DNA of 8,601 nucleotides, taken from the IMG/VR virus record IMGVR_UViG_2700989489_000020; one strand, 5' to 3'. The notes under the pieces are model-generated. The model worked only from the letters and a program-made list of their open reading frames with translations. It did not search any database and had not been told where the DNA came from. Every line of letters begins with the position of its first letter. Positions within the stretch are counted from its first letter, which is position 1. Made by a program: the position numbers and the translations under genes. Shown in pieces: positions 1,311-8,601 of the stretch. Source of the stretch: a virus (lineage: Duplodnaviria; Heunggongvirae; Uroviricota; Caudoviricetes).

Positions 1311-1571
1311 CTAATCTTCAAAAGCAGAAAAACCAGCCTTAATCCCAGCTTCTTTCAGAGACGGCAACGATGTGACAAATTCATTTGCACGCAAAATAAA
1401 ACCATCCGTCACAAGCCCATCCACAAAATGAATTAACGCAGCTCCACTCTTCCTTTGTTGAGACTGTAAACATTTAATACGGCAGTGGCTGACAATAGCG
1501 CCCTTCTCAACGCGCACAGTATAGAGGCCATCTTCACTAAAAATTTCACGTAATTCTTCGATTCTCATCAA
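1311..1571 (-). CDS. Small hypothetical protein (86 aa); sits where rem lies next to hokD in Qin-type prophages
   Basis: ORF track. GGAAGGA about 9 nt upstream of the ATG on the minus strand. Identity with Rem not verified. Confidence 0.5.
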   Translation of the reverse strand: MMRIEELREIFSEDGLYTVRVEKGAIVSHCRIKCLQSQQRKSGAALIHFVDGLVTDGFILRANEFVTSLPSLKEAGIKAGFSAFED

Positions 1572-1685: not shown

Positions 1686-1720
1686 TTGAAAATAAAAACA
1701 AAAACCCGCCGAAGCGGGTT
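1686..1720 (-). terminator. Rho-independent terminator after hok
   Basis: Minus strand reads AACCCGC-TTCG-GCGGGTT followed by TTTTGTTTTTATTTTC; 7-bp GC-rich stem plus U tract, about 70 nt after the hok stop. Confidence 0.6.
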
Positions 1721-1788
1721 AAGTGCGGGTGCGTTGAGGATGCCTGACACATCAGAGGTGGCGAGGGATTTCTCCCCCGCCTGGTCTC

Positions 1789-1944
1789 TTACTCCTCAGG
1801 TTCGTAAGCTGTGAAGACAGCGACCTCCGTCTGGCCGGTTCGGATTCGTACCTCGCAGAGGTCTTTCCTCGTTACCAGTGCCGTCACTATGACGGTTAAA
1901 CAGATGACGATCAGGGCGATTAACATCGCCTTTTGCTGCTTCAT
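1789..1944 (-). CDS. hokD: Hok/Gef family type I toxin (51 aa), HokD/RelF-like
   Basis: Translation from the internal Met of ORF 1789..2001: MKQQKAMLIALIVICLTVIVTALVTRKDLCEVRIRTGQTEVAVFTAYEPEE, matching my recollection of HokD. AAGGAG 9 nt upstream of that ATG. Single TM segment plus conserved Cys. Confidence 0.85.
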   Translation of the reverse strand: MKQQKAMLIALIVICLTVIVTALVTRKDLCEVRIRTGQTEVAVFTAYEPEE

Positions 1945-2136
1945 AGCCTGCTTCTCCTTGACCTTTCGGTCCGTAAGAGGCAATCTATATGTGACGAGCA
2001 TATAGGGGCCTCACTTCGATTTATAGTCGGGTGGGGCTTTTATCTATCTGCCGTTGGTGTTCATGCCCGAGGCAGATAGCCTCAAGCACCCGCAGCAATC
2101 CTACTTAACTCTGCCGTTACAGCAAACCGTTTTCGC

Positions 2137-2279: not shown

Positions 2280-3038
2280 TCAAGTGCCTTTCCTGGTCCA
2301 GCCATATTTTTTGAATGCAGGCGCCGCTTCATCGGTTTGTAGCCATTCTGCAAATCGACGGGTTTCATCATTTGCATCCTGACGTACTGTAATGTTCATA
2401 TCACGCCATATCACGTAGTCTGGCGCTATTTCCACGACATCACCAATTTCTGGATTACTGGCTGCCCAGTCAGCCCAGGTTATCCAGACATCTGCTCCAG
2501 GCTGATTCTCAAGAGCCTTACGTGCAGTTCCGCTATTGGGCGCATATAAAATAATATTTTTTCGGATTGCGGCGACAGTTTCTATATTCCCTTTACGTCC
2601 GGCAATATCTTCCCAGACGCCAGTGCCTGATGTATTACTGGTACCACCACCATCATTAACAATTACGCCAATCCCAGGTCTGGTCAGGTCGTCAATACTC
2701 CGGATATTTTTAGGATTACCTTTCTTTACCAGTAAAATACTTTTTCGCAGATAAAGAGGCTGAATATCTTTTTCACTGAAGCTGTCTTTATGGTCCCGAA
2801 TGATAGCCAGAGCAGATTGTTCTGATGCGCCAAACAAGATATCTGCATTTTTTTTGGCATCTTCATTCCATTTGTTCTGTGGGCCGTAATGAACGTTCAC
2901 TATAATACCTGTTTTTTCGGCATAAAGTTTGGCTGCATCAAGCAAGGCTGTATGCGGGCCACCAGGACCATACAGATTGATATCAGCATAAGCAGCAGAA
3001 GACAGGAATATTAAAAAACCTGCCATTATGTTCCTCAT
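2280..3038 (-). CDS. Secreted periplasmic substrate-binding protein (ModA-like solute-binding fold), orphan cargo gene
   Basis: ORF track 252 aa. AAGGAG 7 nt upstream of the ATG at 3038. Sec-type signal peptide MRNIMAGFLIFLSSAAYA then DINLYG. C-terminal ...FKKYGWTRKGT resembles the ModA C-terminus from memory. Visibly AT-rich relative to neighbours. Confidence 0.75.
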   Translation of the reverse strand: MRNIMAGFLIFLSSAAYADINLYGPGGPHTALLDAAKLYAEKTGIIVNVHYGPQNKWNEDAKKNADILFGASEQSALAIIRDHKDSFSEKDIQPLYLRKSILLVKKGNPKNIRSIDDLTRPGIGVIVNDGGGTSNTSGTGVWEDIAGRKGNIETVAAIRKNIILYAPNSGTARKALENQPGADVWITWADWAASNPEIGDVVEIAPDYVIWRDMNITVRQDANDETRRFAEWLQTDEAAPAFKKYGWTRKGT

Positions 3039-3202
3039 AAAAAACTCCTTTTATTGGTTATCATGAAATAAAGTTATAAACACTACAAATAATATATATT
3101 ACATCCAGATAAACTTATCCGACTTTACCTCGTGCATAGCTTGTTATTTAAAGTCAACAAAATAAGGAAAATTATACGCATATTGAAGAGTATAAACCTT
3201 AC

Positions 3203-3230
3203 ATGTTGATTACATTTTTGTAATCAACAT
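3203..3230. promoter_or_regulatory. 28-bp palindrome ATGTTGATTACA-TTTT-TGTAATCAACAT upstream of the binding-protein gene
   Basis: Perfect 12-bp inverted arms, 4-bp spacer, inside the AT-rich leader about 165 bp upstream of the start at 3038. No U tract on either side, so not a classic terminator. Confidence 0.5.
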
Positions 3231-3289
3231 CCTGTTTGGAATAGCCAGCCTTTAATGGATAACTATTTCTGACAATGCAATGAGTATAA

Positions 3290-3897
3290 TCAAGTCCATC
3301 TTCCACTGAGAATTAGAGGCGGCATGCTTTTTCCGGCTCTTGCCGGATATCCGTAATTGTCCATAATCTGCAGATTTATACCTTCTGCATGACCTGTCAG
3401 CGAAAATTTGTCCGGTGTTTCTACGGGAATGACATCAAAAGTTACACGCACTCGCGTTACCGTGTAGACCTACTTTCCTGCACTTGCAAGATCACAGTGG
3501 TGTAACCGTAACAGGAATTTATTCTCTGGACCGGCAGTAAATCCCTGAGTGGCGTGGTTCCCATATCAATTTCCCGCCAGGCAGCCTCCATTGCCAGCGT
3601 ACAGGCTGGAGCCATGACCTGCCCTTTAAATCTGGCCCGACCATCCCACCGGACGTGTTCTTCTCCCCTGAACTTAGGTACAGTCATCTCCAGTGGCACA
3701 AAAGTGTCAGCGCCATAATTTTTGACCGTTATCGCGCTACGGATATTTTGTTGACTGGTGAAAATCACCCCGCAGAATCAGGCTTATTCCCTTAACCTGG
3801 GCTTTCATCCTGACCGCCGCCTCACTACGACCAATCAGACTGCCGATGCATTTTACCTTCATTGTTAGTATCATGATTTCAGGCCTGCACCATCCGC
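3290..3897 (-). pseudogene. Decayed coding region: protein-like minus-strand reading frames broken across three frames
   Basis: Minus strand gives a 42-aa stretch (MKVKCIGSLIGRSEAAVRMKAQVKGISLILRGDFHQSTKYP), ORF 3457..3768, then an unstarted open frame ...VTRVRVTFDVIPVETPDKFSLTGHAEGINLQIMDNYGYPARAGKSMPPLILSGRWT ending at 3290. No single intact ORF, no good RBS. Family not recognised. Confidence 0.3.
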
Positions 3898-4631
3898 TCA
3901 TTGCCCGGACTTCCGACAAATCCCGGCAACCATATCCCGGTGCTTGTTCAGCTCCCGCAGCGCGGCGCAGACTCGCTCCCACTTCTGGACATGATTCTTC
4001 GCCCTACGCAGTTCGCGATTTGCCATATGCAGCGATGGCAAAATCAAATCATCTTCTCGCGTTGCAGTAAACGATGGCAGCGACTGCACAATGTCCGCCA
4101 CAGTTTCTGTTTTAATATCTTCCTGTGTTGCATCTTTCTGTACCGGTAACGAACACCGGCTGGCTGAGGAAAGGCTTTACCATCGGTTTCCGCTACCGAT
4201 TCAACTTTCGGCTCTGCTGGTAAATTATCACCTGGTATGCAGTAACGAATTTTACCGTTCTGGTTTACGCGAATCAGACGACCTTTGCTGATTGCCATTG
4301 CCAGCGTTGAAGCAACTTTGCGGGATGTTGTACCGAACAGCGTAGCCAGTTCATCCGCCGTTTGTGGTCCGCGTTGTTCAATCGTCGCGGTTAAATCGCA
4401 CTCTGAGATTTTCGCTTCTGTTGCCGTGGTGGTTTCTTCTGGCGCTGGCTGTTCCTGCTGAACGTTGTTATCAGCCACACGCCAGGTGTATACGCTTTTA
4501 TCAACGAAGCCAGCCTTTTTCAGTTCCCACAGCTCGTTCAGTACTTCTTCACGACTGATATCAAGTCGCGCAGCCAGCTCTACCGACGTGGCTTTTCCCA
4601 TCGCTTTCAGTGCGTCAAAAACAGTCTCCAT
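3898..4631 (-). CDS. Winged-helix prophage protein (DUF1627-like), apparently frameshifted near 4140-4180
   Basis: ORF 4044..4631 has GGGAGGAAA 5 nt upstream of the ATG and an HTH-like N-terminus, but its last ~40 aa are low-quality. A second frame (open from 4176, ORF 3898..4101) encodes plausible sequence [73 protein letters not shown]1627 name is from memory. Confidence 0.5.
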
Positions 4632-6159: not shown

Positions 6160-6682
6160 ACGAACCCCTGGCAGACATTTGTTTATCTGCAAAGTAATAT
6201 TGGTATTGCTGACGATACGCGTGCTTGAAAGCAATAGCTTTTTCTATAAGCTCGTCAGTCTCACGTTCCACAACAACTGGATCCGCAAAAAGCAGCCCGG
6301 ACTCCACCACATCGCCATATTCTTTGTTTAACCCGGCGATCATGTACGTAATGCTTTTTCCGTCAGTAATTTCACAATACAATCTGAAATCGCTGATCCG
6401 GATAGCCTCCATAATTGCCGGAATCAGCGCCGTGAATTTGTCACGCTTATCTCTGGTGTCGATAGCTTTCCAGCGTTCGAATATCTTCACCCGGTTAACG
6501 CCCAGCGCCCGTTGATCAACCTCGCCATCATTAAACGTGACGCGTTGAACATCGATGTTCGGGCGTTCTTTCAGAGCCCAGAATGCTTCCGTGATTAATA
6601 TCGTCGCCTGCTCCTGTGTCATTCCTGGTCGGCATACCCAGGTATCCAGAGCCTCACAAACCTGTTCAGTGGTGATTTTCAT
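6131..6682 (-). CDS. YdaT-like protein in the cII position (183 aa)
   Basis: ORF track. Sits between the Cro-like gene and the initiator; overlaps the Cro-like stop by 17 nt and the initiator start by 29 nt. YdaT call rests on synteny with Rac racR-ydaS-ydaT and a loosely remembered motif. Confidence 0.55.
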   Translation of the reverse strand: MKITTEQVCEALDTWVCRPGMTQEQATILITEAFWALKERPNIDVQRVTFNDGEVDQRALGVNRVKIFERWKAIDTRDKRDKFTALIPAIMEAIRISDFRLYCEITDGKSITYMIAGLNKEYGDVVESGLLFADPVVVERETDELIEKAIAFKHAYRQQYQYYFADKQMSARGSYEYRCTTMG

Positions 6683-6893
6683 TGTTCAACCGCCCCGCCC
6701 GCTTTGCCTTACGATATTCGTCATAAACTTTGGGGTCGTACTGAAGTTCCCCGCCGGATGCCTCTTGCAGGCGCATCGCGCGACCTTCAGGAACCAGTTC
6801 CCCCCATGCAGCAACGCTTGCCAGCCTAACTCCTGCGACATTGGCAAGCTTTGTTTTGCTGCCAAAAAACGCTATAGCATCAATTTTCAACAT
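6666..6893 (-). CDS. Cro-like HTH regulator (P22 Cro / YdaS family)
   Basis: 75 aa. AAGGGG 6 nt upstream of the ATG. Core FFGSKTKLANVAGVRLASVAAWGELVPEGRAMRLQEASGGEL resembles P22 Cro from memory. Divergent from the repressor. Confidence 0.75.
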   Translation of the reverse strand: MLKIDAIAFFGSKTKLANVAGVRLASVAAWGELVPEGRAMRLQEASGGELQYDPKVYDEYRKAKRAGRLNNENHH

Positions 6894-6969
6894 ATCGAAC
6901 CCCTTAGATTTTCCTAAGGAAACTAGATCGTAGAGAAACCTAAGTCAAGAAAAATTAGAATTACCTAAT
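6894..6969. promoter_or_regulatory. Divergent control region with three 16-bp dyad operators and two back-to-back promoters
   Basis: Operators of form YTTAG-N6-CTAAR: CTTAGATTTTCCTAAG (6903-6918), CGTAGAGAAACCTAAG (6929-6944), ATTAGAATTACCTAAT (6954-6969), spaced 25-26 bp. Minus-strand promoter: TTGACT (plus 6943-6948), 17 bp, TAGTTT. Plus-strand -10 TAGAAT (6956-6961) ends 8 nt before the repressor ATG, with a poor -35. Confidence 0.6.
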
Positions 6970-7377
6970 ATGAAAAACGAAACCTTCGGTGCTCGCCTCT
7001 TATACAGGCGAAAAAAATTAAAACTGTCTCAGGCCGCATTAGGTAAGCTGGTCAAAGTGGCTCACGTAACAATTTCTCAATGGGAAAGAGATGAAACACA
7101 GCCAGCGGGGAAGAGATTATTCGCACTGAGCCAGGCGCTTCAGTGCTCGCCGACTTGGCTTCTTTTTGGAGATGAAGATAAGCAACCAGGCGAACCGATC
7201 CCAGATAATCAGCCAGTCAATCTGACAGAAGATCAAAAAGAGTTGCTTCAACTGTTCGACGCACTGCCTGAGTCAGAGCAAAAGGCTCTGTTGTCAGAGA
7301 TGCGTGCTCGAGTTGAGAATTTCAACAAACTTTTTGAAGAACTACTCAAAGCTCGCAAAAGAAGCGCAAATAAATAA
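6970..7377 (+). CDS. CI-like prophage repressor, XRE-family HTH, no S24 peptidase domain
   Basis: 135 aa. HTH in LSQAALGKLVKVAHVTISQWERDE. Too short for a LexA-like autocleavage domain and no such motif seen. No Shine-Dalgarno; apparently leaderless. Confidence 0.85.
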   Translation: MKNETFGARLLYRRKKLKLSQAALGKLVKVAHVTISQWERDETQPAGKRLFALSQALQCSPTWLLFGDEDKQPGEPIPDNQPVNLTEDQKELLQLFDALPESEQKALLSEMRARVENFNKLFEELLKARKRSANK

Positions 7378-7410
7378 CCCCCCTTTTTTTCGCAACTCTC
7401 TGTAATAAAA

Positions 7411-7440
7411 AGCACAAACTTTCAAATACTTGTGTTTTTT
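7411..7440 (+). terminator. Weak candidate terminator after the repressor gene
   Basis: AGCACAA pairs with UUGUGUU (one G-U), 12-nt loop, then UUUU. Large loop makes it weak. Confidence 0.3.
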
Positions 7441-7451
7441 ACATCAAGAAG

Positions 7452-7505
7452 CTTAGGTTTTTCTACACAAAAAGCTTGACCATAACTCTTAGGCTATTCT
7501 AAATT
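7452..7505 (+). promoter_or_regulatory. Putative PL-like promoter with two operator-like sites
   Basis: CTTAGGTTTTTCTACA (7452-7467) and CTTAGGCTATTCTAAA (7488-7503) share the half-site and N6 spacing of the 6903-6969 operators. -35 TTGACC (7476-7481), 18-bp spacer, -10 TAAATT (7500-7505). Confidence 0.45.
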
Positions 7506-7584
7506 CTACTCATCAAGACACCGCACGGTGTTCTCAGCAAACAGTTCCGCTACCCGGCGTTAAGGGGAAGCAGAGGATTTCTCA

Positions 7585-7941
7585 GTGGGCGAAGTCAAAC
7601 ATCAGAATGGAAGGCGTCCAGGGATCAGCAAAGAAACAGCGATGGCGCTTTATATTGATATCAGCGCCATTGCCGGACAGGTAAGAGTTATCAGAGCGGT
7701 AACTAAGCGGTATGCGCCTTTACTTCAGAAAGTCTCTGGTGAGTGCACCGAAGATATTGTCAACGATTTCGTCATCGAACTGCGAGGACTCATCTTCAGT
7801 TACAAGGTGACCACAATTTTTGCAGATGGCTCCCGCGAAACTGTCAGAGCCCTGCGGCTTAAAGGATGTGTCAAAGACTTAGCCACCACATTCTGGGCAA
7901 GAAAACTTGATTGTATTCATAACCAATTTCCTCTCGAGTAA
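7585..7941 (+). CDS. Hypothetical protein, first gene of the left operon (118 aa from GTG; alternative ATG at 7642)
   Basis: ORF track. GAGGA 7 nt upstream of the GTG at 7585. No recognisable family; no N-like arginine-rich motif. Confidence 0.5.
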   Translation: MGEVKHQNGRRPGISKETAMALYIDISAIAGQVRVIRAVTKRYAPLLQKVSGECTEDIVNDFVIELRGLIFSYKVTTIFADGSRETVRALRLKGCVKDLATTFWARKLDCIHNQFPLE

Positions 7942-8013
7942 CAGACCCCTCAGAGGATACCACCTCGCCTGACGTGGTTAAAAAGCAGGCAACGCTAACC
8001 ACAAGGAGCCGAC

Positions 8014-8232
8014 ATGCAGAAACGAGACCCCGTCATCATCGCGCCAGACTATACCGATGATGAACTTTATGAGTGGATGCACCAGAAAATTAAGGCGGTG
8101 CAGGACCTGAAATGGGCCAATGAAGCCAGGGCTAAGCAGGCTGAAAATCTGTCCGCTCTGGAGCAGGATATCACCAATCTGGAAAAAGCAGCGGCATTAA
8201 GCATTGCCAGAATGATTACATACCCACGTTAA
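8014..8232 (+). CDS. Hypothetical small protein (72 aa)
   Basis: ORF track. AAGGAG 7 nt upstream of the ATG. Predicted helical, acidic N-terminus. Function unknown. Confidence 0.55.
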   Translation: MQKRDPVIIAPDYTDDELYEWMHQKIKAVQDLKWANEARAKQAENLSALEQDITNLEKAAALSIARMITYPR

Positions 8233-8254
8233 TAGCTAACCAACGAGGCTAATA

Positions 8255-8521
8255 ATGGAATTTAAAGATTTACCAACGCCATTACAGGAAATGGCATCGA
8301 ATATAGTTCGTTCACAACTGGCTACTCTTGACCTTAGTACCGCAGAAAAAGAAACCATCGATAATATGGTTCGTAATGTGCGCAATGCTTTTTCTGGGCT
8401 ATATGGTTCTGATAATCAAAAGCAGGAAAGCGATGTTAATAAACGGGTAATTTCTGTTTGCGTGAATGGCCATGTGAGGTGTACTGGCAATAGCGGACAC
8501 TACCATTTGTTCTTTTTTTAA
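8255..8521 (+). CDS. Hypothetical protein (88 aa as read); 3' end probably replaced by IS-derived sequence from about 8480
   Basis: ORF track. GAGG 8 nt upstream. Last ~13 codons lie inside the inferred IS terminal repeat. Confidence 0.5.
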   Translation: MEFKDLPTPLQEMASNIVRSQLATLDLSTAEKETIDNMVRNVRNAFSGLYGSDNQKQESDVNKRVISVCVNGHVRCTGNSGHYHLFFF

Positions 8522-8601
8522 GCAGCCATCTGATGATATTTTTCCCTGAAGGCTGCCGGGGAGATATTCCCCAGACGAGAGTGACGACGCTGACGATTGT
8601 A
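8480..8601 (-). mobile_element. Right end of an IS3-family insertion sequence (terminal repeat plus transposase 3' end); element continues past the window
   Basis: Plus strand from 8480 reads TGTACTGGCAATAGCGGACAC, resembling the IS3 terminal repeat as I recall it (TG..GCAATAGTGGACAC). Transposase stop lies 38 bp inside that end. Confidence 0.55.
8518..8601 (-). CDS. IS3-family transposase (OrfB-type), C-terminal 27 codons only
   Basis: Minus-strand translation YNRQRRHSRLGNISPAAFREKYHQMAA-stop, matching the conserved C-terminal pattern of IS3-family transposases (compare IS3 ...[24 protein letters not shown], from memory). Confidence 0.65.
   Translation of the reverse strand, partial: YNRQRRHSRLGNISPAAFREKYHQMAA

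Follow-up and report, generated by a model that had tools for sequence, protein, structure and literature searches.

The window, that is, the whole stretch of 8,601 nt analyzed here, carries on its plus strand between positions 7585 and 8521 three successive open reading frames (ORFs) of 118 aa (with a GTG start), 72 aa and 88 aa. The initial annotation had described them as three small genes of a repressor-controlled left operon, the last of them cut by an insertion sequence (IS), and the ORFs were confirmed at these positions; the RefSeq records identical to the window annotate all three, as a hypothetical protein (99 aa), as 'protein YdfC' and as a hypothetical protein without its C-terminus. 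They are called gene 1, ydfC and gene 3 below, and the features of the locus are as follows.

1311–1571, minus strand: gene for a Rem homologue of 86 aa, a likely antirepressor judging from its 73% identity to K-12 Rem
6666–6893, minus strand: P22-Cro/DicC-type gene (Pfam P22_Cro match)
6904–6968: right-operator region between the repressor gene and the cro/dicC-like gene, with TTAG-N6-CTAA palindromes (pattern search; exact copies at 6904–6917 and 6955–6968, a copy with one mismatch at 6930–6943)
6970–7377, plus strand: gene for a DicA-family immunity repressor of 135 aa (NCBIfam NF007257, 241.6 bits, full length)
7453–7505, plus strand: predicted left-operon promoter, the dicBp equivalent (promoter scan and pattern search; function by homology), with -35 TTGACC at 7476–7481, -10 TAAATT at 7500–7505 and a spacing of 18
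7453–7466 and 7489–7502: candidate left operators (pattern search), the first with one mismatch and the second an exact palindrome
7511–7569, plus strand: conserved leader with about 97% identity to the K-12 Qin leader, its flanks diverging
7518–7531: leader hairpin ACACCGCACGGTGT
7544–7569: joint of 26–27 nt, GTTCCGCTACCCGGCGTTAAGGGGAA / GTTCCGCTACCCCGGCGTTAAGGGGAA, which precedes the first cassette gene
7585–7941, plus strand: gene 1, 118 aa from GTG 7585 or 99 aa from ATG 7642 (RefSeq, WP_001240336.1)
8014–8232, plus strand: ydfC, encoding an acidic protein of 72 aa (WP_001171903.1; RefSeq 'protein YdfC')
8255–8474, plus strand: native part of gene 3, codons 1–74 of the 135-aa protein WP_000394552.1
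8472–8474: left copy of an ATG target-site duplication
8475–8521, plus strand: IS-encoded tail of the chimeric 88-aa ORF, 14 codons and a stop
8475–8601, transposase on the minus strand: end of IS600 (IS3 family), which runs off the window (RefSeq 'IS3-like element IS600 family transposase')

The E. coli MBT-5 chromosome contains the whole window with 100% identity, and identical copies of the block 7380–8601 were found in the O26:H11 strain FWSEC0001 and in strain 05_3471. Identical blocks carry the name PPompW in the LC5678xx records, and by this sequence identity the element is a defective lambdoid prophage at ompW (PPompW). A study of a set of complete E. coli genomes biased toward STEC and EPEC reported such prophages in 44% of them and described the prophages as always defective, often with IS insertions and with general gene decay (PMC8112680). 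In the source-strain prophage, the RefSeq record shows the DUF1482, exonuclease and integrase genes to be frameshifted. Lack of conservation, which would have counted against the ORFs, was not seen: starting at 7380, the block was covered to 80% or more in 510 of the 5,426 complete E. coli genomes. YdfC, gene 1 and gene 3 thus occur in about 9% or more of the completely sequenced genomes of this species, and inducible phages carry them as well.

A full-length PHROG match was obtained for each ORF, namely phrog_21318 for gene 1 (E 9e-67; a family without assigned function), phrog_1744 for YdfC (E 9e-39) and phrog_1363 for gene 3 (E 5e-30). Shine-Dalgarno sequences precede ydfC (AAGGAG) and gene 3 (GAGG), and the ORFs were intact with their Shine-Dalgarno sites in hundreds of genomes and in the inducible phages Evi, vB_EcoS-640R1 and 813R8. 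The pN/pS ratio was below 1 in most allele comparisons and mostly 0.2–0.5, these values resting on few substitutions. The spread in genomes, the PHROG matches, the homologues, the pN/pS values and the Shine-Dalgarno sites together indicate that the ORFs are more than chance.

For gene 1, a GAGGA sequence at 7573–7577 lies 7 nt before GTG 7585 and nothing similar was seen before ATG 7642. It was also observed that GTG 7585 aligns with the ATG of K-12 ydfA directly past the shared joint, and that the 19 extra codons between GTG and ATG remain in frame in diverged gene 1 alleles. Based on these three features of the sequence, we favor GTG 7585 rather than the RefSeq ATG 7642 as the probable start. 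Homologues of equal length and 56–63% identity were found in Klebsiella and Citrobacter with no frame disruption, and the family comprised 24 clusters among 5.8 billion proteins, from E. coli, Klebsiella and Citrobacter. When the gene 1 profile was searched against 1.84 billion representatives, only 10 matches were obtained, all of them short proteins and among them no fused domains or annotated relatives; they are taken to be one enterobacterial family.

YdfC showed 94% identity to K-12 YdfC over residues 1–72, and its homologues were confined to E. coli and E. albertii. In our reading of the sequence by eye the protein appears helical; neither a Pfam family nor, in a profile search of PDB sequences, a PDB relative was found for it. 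In the papers found, YdfC is named, with no function or phenotype described; one paper evolved a YdfC-GFP fusion in yeast and contains nothing on the native function.

The three proteins, the intact gene 3 product and a 77-aa antisense ORF that lies beyond the IS were scanned against Pfam, NCBIfam, PADLOC and PHROGs, and only PHROG families without function and sub-threshold noise were returned. At a threshold of E ≤ 1, PADLOC matched neither the antisense ORF nor any of gene 1, YdfC and intact gene 3, and no toxin match was seen in Pfam or NCBIfam among the scanned proteins. Profile searches of the three families against PDB sequences gave nothing significant, the best hit being a MatP coiled coil with an E value of 0.057. 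Homology to known recombination or regulatory proteins was also sought as evidence against the initial annotation, and none was recognizable for the three proteins in the profile and family searches. Structure prediction, which had been suggested together with these searches, gave poor models without any functional fold match: the AlphaFold model of gene 1 reached a pLDDT of 60.8, with the order helix-helix-strand-strand-helix, and that of gene 3 was unusable (pLDDT 44.7). The same predicted secondary-structure order had raised the idea that gene 1 and gene 3 are distant paralogues, and this was rejected at an hhalign probability of 0.1%. No segment hydrophobic enough for a membrane span was found in the three proteins; the pI is about 5.3 for YdfC and gene 3, which are acidic, and about 9 for the basic gene 1. 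The statement that none of the three proteins belongs to a recognized family was thus upheld with respect to recombination and regulatory proteins, but it went too far in that the second gene is the named YdfC and all three are catalogued.

Control region and operon context

The repressor encoded at 6970–7377 has 63% identity to K-12 DicA, and a YdaT/cII-like gene comes next after the divergent cro/dicC-like gene. The 8.6-kb window contains three exact TTAG-N6-CTAA palindromes where 0.06 would be expected, and all of them lie in the immunity region; when the copies with one mismatch are counted, the operator layout is three-plus-two. The same three-site layout was found in K-12 Qin around dicA/dicC and dicBp, and the -35 of the left promoter aligns with the K-12 dicBp region. 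By analogy, we infer that the candidate operator inside the left promoter, between -35 and -10, serves as a repressor site. With a DicA-family repressor (242 bits) and an operator in this position, the repressor control of the left operon that had been proposed for this locus is well supported. The only internal plus-strand promoter-like match found in the promoter scan was weak (9/12, at 8229–8256). In K-12, Rem derepresses dicBp 165-fold (PMC10448788).

The genes beyond the IS are in keeping with this control region. In the source genome, the IS is followed by the rest of gene 3, the antisense 77-aa ORF, DicF, dicB, ydfD, exonuclease, xis and int, and DicF scored 76.7 bits (12095–12146 of the source locus L002) at a gathering threshold of 48. 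An intact operon was sought in a relative free of the IS, and the prophage of O157:H7 PV15-279 (locus L001) provided it, with the 135-aa gene 3 and then DicF, dicB, DUF1482/ydfD, an 823-aa exonuclease gene, xis and int; DicF there scored 43.5 bits. The early-left position assigned to the genes by comparison with lambdoid phages is therefore correct, since genes for division inhibition, exonuclease, xis and int come after them. The repressor, the operators, the promoter, the downstream DicF/dicB/ydfD/exonuclease/xis/int and the Rem homologue lead us to read the region, with a probability of about 0.8, as the promoter-proximal part of a dicBF-type early-left operon under the control of a DicA-family repressor. 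The operon, YdfC and both hypothetical genes are already catalogued, and the gene context holds nothing unexpected.

The leader between promoter and gene 1 is conserved, and its joint of 26–27 nt was unchanged in every aligned locus, even in those with unrelated immunity regions. The leader was considered as a structured RNA or a put/nut-like element, and this was not retained: its fold was not exceptional (z -0.36), Rfam returned nothing in 7380–8601, and sequence conservation alone remains. These data also bear on the idea that gene 1 encodes an antiterminator of the N type which acts on a nut-like site in the leader. Gene 1 comes first behind the early-left promoter, its product is basic, and the conserved leader before it contains, besides the hairpin, a CGCTAC...CCCGGCGTTAAGGGG element, all of which would suit such a factor. 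However, the N-terminus of gene 1, MGEVKHQNGRRPGISKETA, has no arginine-rich motif, just as the initial annotation had noticed, and no N-family match was obtained for it in Pfam or PHROGs. The hairpin is not of the boxB-like kind with a 5-nt loop, and some carriers of gene 1, such as phage Evi, lack the half of the leader that contains it. Moreover, the unrelated ydfA and ydfB replace gene 1 behind the same joint, and an antitermination role for gene 1 is accordingly highly improbable.

The IS600 insertion and the downstream dicF and dicB genes

When the window was compared with the IS-free locus L001, the two were identical up to 8475, where the insertion adds 1,266 bp, and the junctions read GGCCATG/TGAGGT...ACCTCA/ATGTTC. 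The inserted element starts with TGAGGTGTACTGG and ends with ...GGCTACCTCA; it has TG...CA ends, a 3-bp duplication and an IS3-type transposase. An IS had been placed at about 8480; it is indeed present and cuts the third gene after codon 74, with the junction lying at 8475. IS600 insertions in PPompW share with this copy the TG...CA ends, the 3-bp duplication and the two-frame transposase. This particular site is rare, with only 3 of 5,426 complete E. coli genomes having IS600 there, in comparison with IS insertion in general, which is reported for PPompW (PMC8112680).

The stub of gene 3 keeps the whole N-module (residues 1–50) and the linker, while the C-module lies on the far side of the IS. 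These 50 residues are common to proteins of 124, 133, 201, 208 and 212 aa whose C-termini are unrelated, and the N-module itself exists in two alleles of about 60% identity, both joined to one C-module. In 933W-like Stx2a phages, distant homologues of gene 3 with 35–38% identity over 125 residues were found within the early-left operon, downstream of the recombination genes.

In K-12, a single polycistronic ydfABC-dicF transcript is made from dicBp, RNase III and RNase E cut DicF out of it, and no internal promoter was found for DicF/DicB (PMC10448788). By analogy, IS600 probably uncouples the present dicF/dicB copy from dicBp, its only known promoter, because about 1.26 kb of IS now stands between dicBp and dicF/dicB and no other promoter is known, and this copy is probably silenced as a result. 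Thus the claim that the IS severed the operon from whatever followed is right as to the physical separation, but the remainder was not lost and lies directly behind the IS. Silencing of dicF/dicB would fit the observation that this prophage also carries frameshifts in its DUF1482, exonuclease and integrase genes. On the other hand, the ends of IS3-family elements can form outward promoters, and the dicF/dicB copy may therefore still be expressed. The start site, the transcription and the polarity of IS600 in this prophage are here presumed from K-12. Since EHEC strains have several dicF copies, which contribute to virulence regulation, the uncoupling by IS600 is of relevance to EHEC.

Cassette exchange and possible roles of the three proteins

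A total of 84 loci bearing ydfC were compared, 80 IMG/VR contigs and four reference loci, with a YdfC identity of at least 96%; many are near-identical prophages, and the counts do not represent independent events. The slot before ydfC was occupied by gene 1 in 35 loci and by ydfA with ydfB in 45. The slot after ydfC was empty in 35 loci, held the 135-aa gene with the antisense ORF in 36 (a count that takes in the IS-split source locus L002), a 124-aa variant in 6 and a 201-aa variant in 2. The 135-aa gene and the convergent 77-aa ORF were always paired in the 36 loci. Compared with the K-12 operon, the pair of gene 3 and antisense ORF is a clean insert of 634 bp, bounded by the stop codon of ydfC on one side and by the region upstream of dicF on the other; the latter region is itself 97–100% conserved. 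All combinations of the two slots were seen among the 84 loci, with any immunity type. Gene 1, YdfC and gene 3 are independent swappable cassettes and not an obligate trio; since the slots recombine freely across the 84 loci, an obligate three-protein system is excluded. The treatment of the three genes as one group, as in the initial annotation, was not borne out. Variation of the genes around dicF had been illustrated earlier for O157 prophages (PMC5069750).

The ORFs could also matter mainly as RNA, forming the 5′ body of the DicF precursor, with the proteins dispensable or decaying. DicF of K-12 is processed from such a polycistronic ydfABC-dicF transcript (PMC10448788), the contents of the slots are interchangeable or missing, the carriers are mostly defective prophages, and no function is assigned to any of the three proteins. 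Nevertheless, this explanation seems improbable to us against the maintenance of the reading frames: as described above, the ORFs stay intact with their Shine-Dalgarno sites in hundreds of genomes and three inducible phages, the gene 1 protein is kept in other genera at 56–63% identity with its frame undisturbed, and the pN/pS values are mostly low.

It had also been suggested that genes in this position may be exclusion, anti-defence or toxin-like cargo, and lysogen-expressed cargo for superinfection exclusion, defence or toxicity is indeed frequent in prophage accessory regions. DicB, encoded in the same operon, was reported to protect against some phages (PMC6832061), and the 77-aa antisense ORF beside gene 3 has, in our own reading, a strong AGGAGG Shine-Dalgarno sequence and could be expressed in the lysogen. 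However, the PADLOC search was empty, the proteins lack membrane segments, and the promoter is of the DicA-repressed type with the weak match at 8229–8256 as the sole internal plus-strand candidate. Furthermore, induction of the K-12 operon from Plac no longer inhibited growth at all once dicF and dicB had been deleted (PMC5069750), which means that YdfA, YdfB, YdfC and YdfD were not toxic at that expression; this result covers these four proteins and leaves out gene 1 and gene 3. Taking together the lack of a PADLOC match, the repressed promoter and the lack of toxicity in K-12, the proteins are unlikely to be toxins or lysogen-expressed defence, and we consider the cargo explanation quite improbable.

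A role as early counter-defence or host-takeover effectors, in which gene 3 would join an adaptor N-module to exchangeable specificity C-modules, is possible though doubtful. It would suit the location of the genes, which open the early-left operon and lie ahead of DicF and DicB, inhibitors of host division; it would also suit the small size and solubility of the proteins, the acidity of YdfC and gene 3, and the high turnover of the cassettes. The modular make-up of gene 3, whose residues 1–50 occur on unrelated C-termini (124 to 212 aa) and whose two N-module alleles share the same C-module, and the distant homologues that 933W-like Stx2a phages carry in their pL operon point the same way. 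Against it stand the lack of similarity to known anti-defence or takeover proteins in the family and profile searches, the lack of a usable structure model, the absence of a YdfC phenotype from the literature, and the fact that most carriers are defective prophages in which lytic function is no longer selected (PMC8112680). That the cassettes make up an early effector set of counter-defence proteins or host-factor inhibitors, swapped at the joint GTTCCGCTACCCCGGCGTTAAGGGGAA and at the ydfC boundaries and with the N-module of gene 3 as the adaptor, is in our estimate unlikely.

Returning to the reading of the region as the 5′ part of a dicBF-type operon, the following course of events may be envisaged. 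In the lysogen, as in K-12 Qin, the DicA-family repressor would silence the operon from the TTAG-N6-CTAA operators, until derepression by the Rem-type antirepressor (1311–1571) or by stochastic switching. One polycistronic transcript would then start near 7512 and carry the leader, gene 1, ydfC and gene 3, followed in intact relatives by the untranslated stretch that is the source of DicF, and by dicB, ydfD, exonuclease, xis and int. The three proteins would, with low confidence, be small soluble cytoplasmic and non-essential accessories of the early lytic program, acting neither as toxins nor in the lysogen and forming no obligate complex. Each of them may bind a factor of the host or of a competitor phage, as the accessory genes of the lambda pL operon do, a suggestion based solely on position, size and cassette turnover. 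In the present prophage, the IS600 at 8475 would leave a gene 3 stub with the N-module only and separate dicBp from dicF/dicB by about 1.26 kb of IS sequence.

The trio described as unrecognized can hence be placed in the known circuit in which DicA, DicC, Rem and dicBp lead to DicF and DicB, and specialists in lambdoid prophages will find nothing surprising here. The cassettes may, with a small probability, be untapped early phage effectors, and YdfC, gene 1 and gene 3 are cheap candidates for early phage effector screens.

Comparison with lambda and with the K-12 Qin operon

The accessory genes of the lambda pL operon (ral, the ea genes, kil, cIII and the exo-xis region) are small, non-essential and mosaic, and are expressed only upon derepression. 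As in that operon, the accessory genes described here are situated between the immunity region and the genes for recombination and integration, and a division inhibitor is encoded in the same operon, namely DicB together with DicF here and Kil in phage Evi. Unlike lambda pL, the operon has no sequence similarity to it, no N gene and no recognizable nut site, and in contrast to lambda the repressor is of the short uncleavable DicA/Gifsy type, which is controlled by an antirepressor and not by RecA cleavage (PMC10448788).

The closest comparison is with the dicBF operon of K-12 Qin, in which the order is dicA, then ydfA-ydfB-ydfC-dicF-dicB-ydfD-ydfE. Several features are common to both, including a DicA-family repressor (63%) with a divergent cro/dicC-like gene, the TTAG-N6-CTAA operator layout with an aligned -35 and a leader of about 97% identity, ydfC (94%) and an untranslated stretch upstream of dicF (97%) that is followed by DicF, dicB and ydfD, and a Rem-type antirepressor adjoining hokD. 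On the other hand, the operator sequences, and hence the immunity specificity, differ from those of Qin; the first slot holds the 99/118-aa gene and not ydfA with ydfB; and a 634-bp cassette with the 135-aa gene 3 and the convergent 77-aa ORF stands between ydfC and the region upstream of dicF. Gene 3 is in addition interrupted by IS600, and the prophage occupies the ompW site and has kept the exonuclease, xis and int genes, with frameshifts in the source strain.

The operon leader and its joint

Window 7511-7569: operon leader, with the joint (the sequence ending the leader) at 7544-7569

This leader was about 97% identical to that of the cryptic prophage Qin of K-12, whereas the first gene, the operators and the repressor (about 70% nucleotide identity) differed from their K-12 Qin counterparts. 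The 3′ half of the leader, GTTCCGCTAC(C)CCGGCGTTAAGGGGAA, was invariant even where the immunity region of the phage was unrelated, and it always preceded the first cassette gene; in the window the joint was one C short relative to the other copies. The fold of the leader was unexceptional (folding z -0.36). The 3′ half of the leader may mark a recombination joint, or it may act as an RNA element.

Gene 3 and its antisense reading frame

Gene 3, the third cassette gene, is split by IS600 in the window, and it was followed in the IS-free relative from O157:H7 PV15-279 (L001) and in the source genome past the IS (L002).

L001 9875-10508: insertion comprising gene 3 and the antisense ORF
L001 10261-10494, minus strand: antisense ORF, 77 aa, basic, phrog_10348
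L002 11527-11760: antisense ORF in the source genome, just past the IS

Relative to K-12, gene 3 and the antisense ORF together formed a clean 634-bp insertion, in which the two were convergent with their 3′ ends overlapping by 23 bp. An AGGAGG Shine-Dalgarno sequence was present 5 nt upstream of the ATG of the antisense ORF, and no promoter for this ORF was found. The antisense ORF accompanied every 135-aa form of gene 3 but never the 124-aa or 201-aa forms, suggesting that the 135-aa gene 3 is a 201-aa ancestor truncated by insertion of the antisense ORF.

The Rem homologue and other features of the window

Window 1311-1571, minus strand: Rem homologue, 86-aa ORF annotated as hypothetical, 73% identity to K-12 Rem
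Window 1699-1780, minus strand: sub-threshold Rfam match to IsrK, an sRNA of Salmonella Gifsy-1
Window 1789-2091, minus strand: hokD/sok type I toxin-antitoxin locus
Window 2280-3038 and 3199-3768, minus strand: low-GC island of the early-right region

Rem of K-12 is the antirepressor of DicA, and with its homologue encoded in the window the DicA/DicC/Rem switch appears to be complete in this prophage. The IsrK-like match was weak (24.9 bits against a Rfam gathering score of 50, E 0.038), ending in a terminator-like hairpin with the Rem homologue just downstream. Since IsrK of Gifsy-1 also lies upstream of an antirepressor gene, the synteny of this sub-threshold match with the Rem homologue may be meaningful.

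In the hokD/sok locus, the sok RNA (1942-2091) scored 103.9 bits, and hokD is annotated in a record identical to the window. The low-GC island (GC 0.36-0.46), an insertion of virulence-type cargo amid the replication genes, carried paa, an AcfC-family adhesin gene, adjoined by a pseudogene for a fimbrial protein that is disrupted by both a frameshift and an internal stop.

Relatives and decay of the prophage

In K-12, the RNase III processing that yields the long DicF forms takes place within the stretch upstream of dicF. In some PPompW copies (loci L005, L009, L020 and L063), about 80 nt (positions 123-200) were missing from this 320-nt untranslated stretch. Phage Evi (L004) carried gene 1, ydfC and gene 3, preceded there by a different repressor.

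L004 5222-5747: two ORFs of phage Evi, flanked by the repressor on one side and the left-operon joint on the other

Judged by eye, these two ORFs look like a ParD/ParE-type antitoxin-toxin pair.

The source prophage is decaying. Downstream of the IS (L002 12503-16674), the genes for DUF1482/ydfD, the exonuclease and the integrase were all frameshifted, as was, within the window, the DUF1627 gene (4044-4631 region). Such decay fits the published view that every PPompW copy is defective (PMC8112680).
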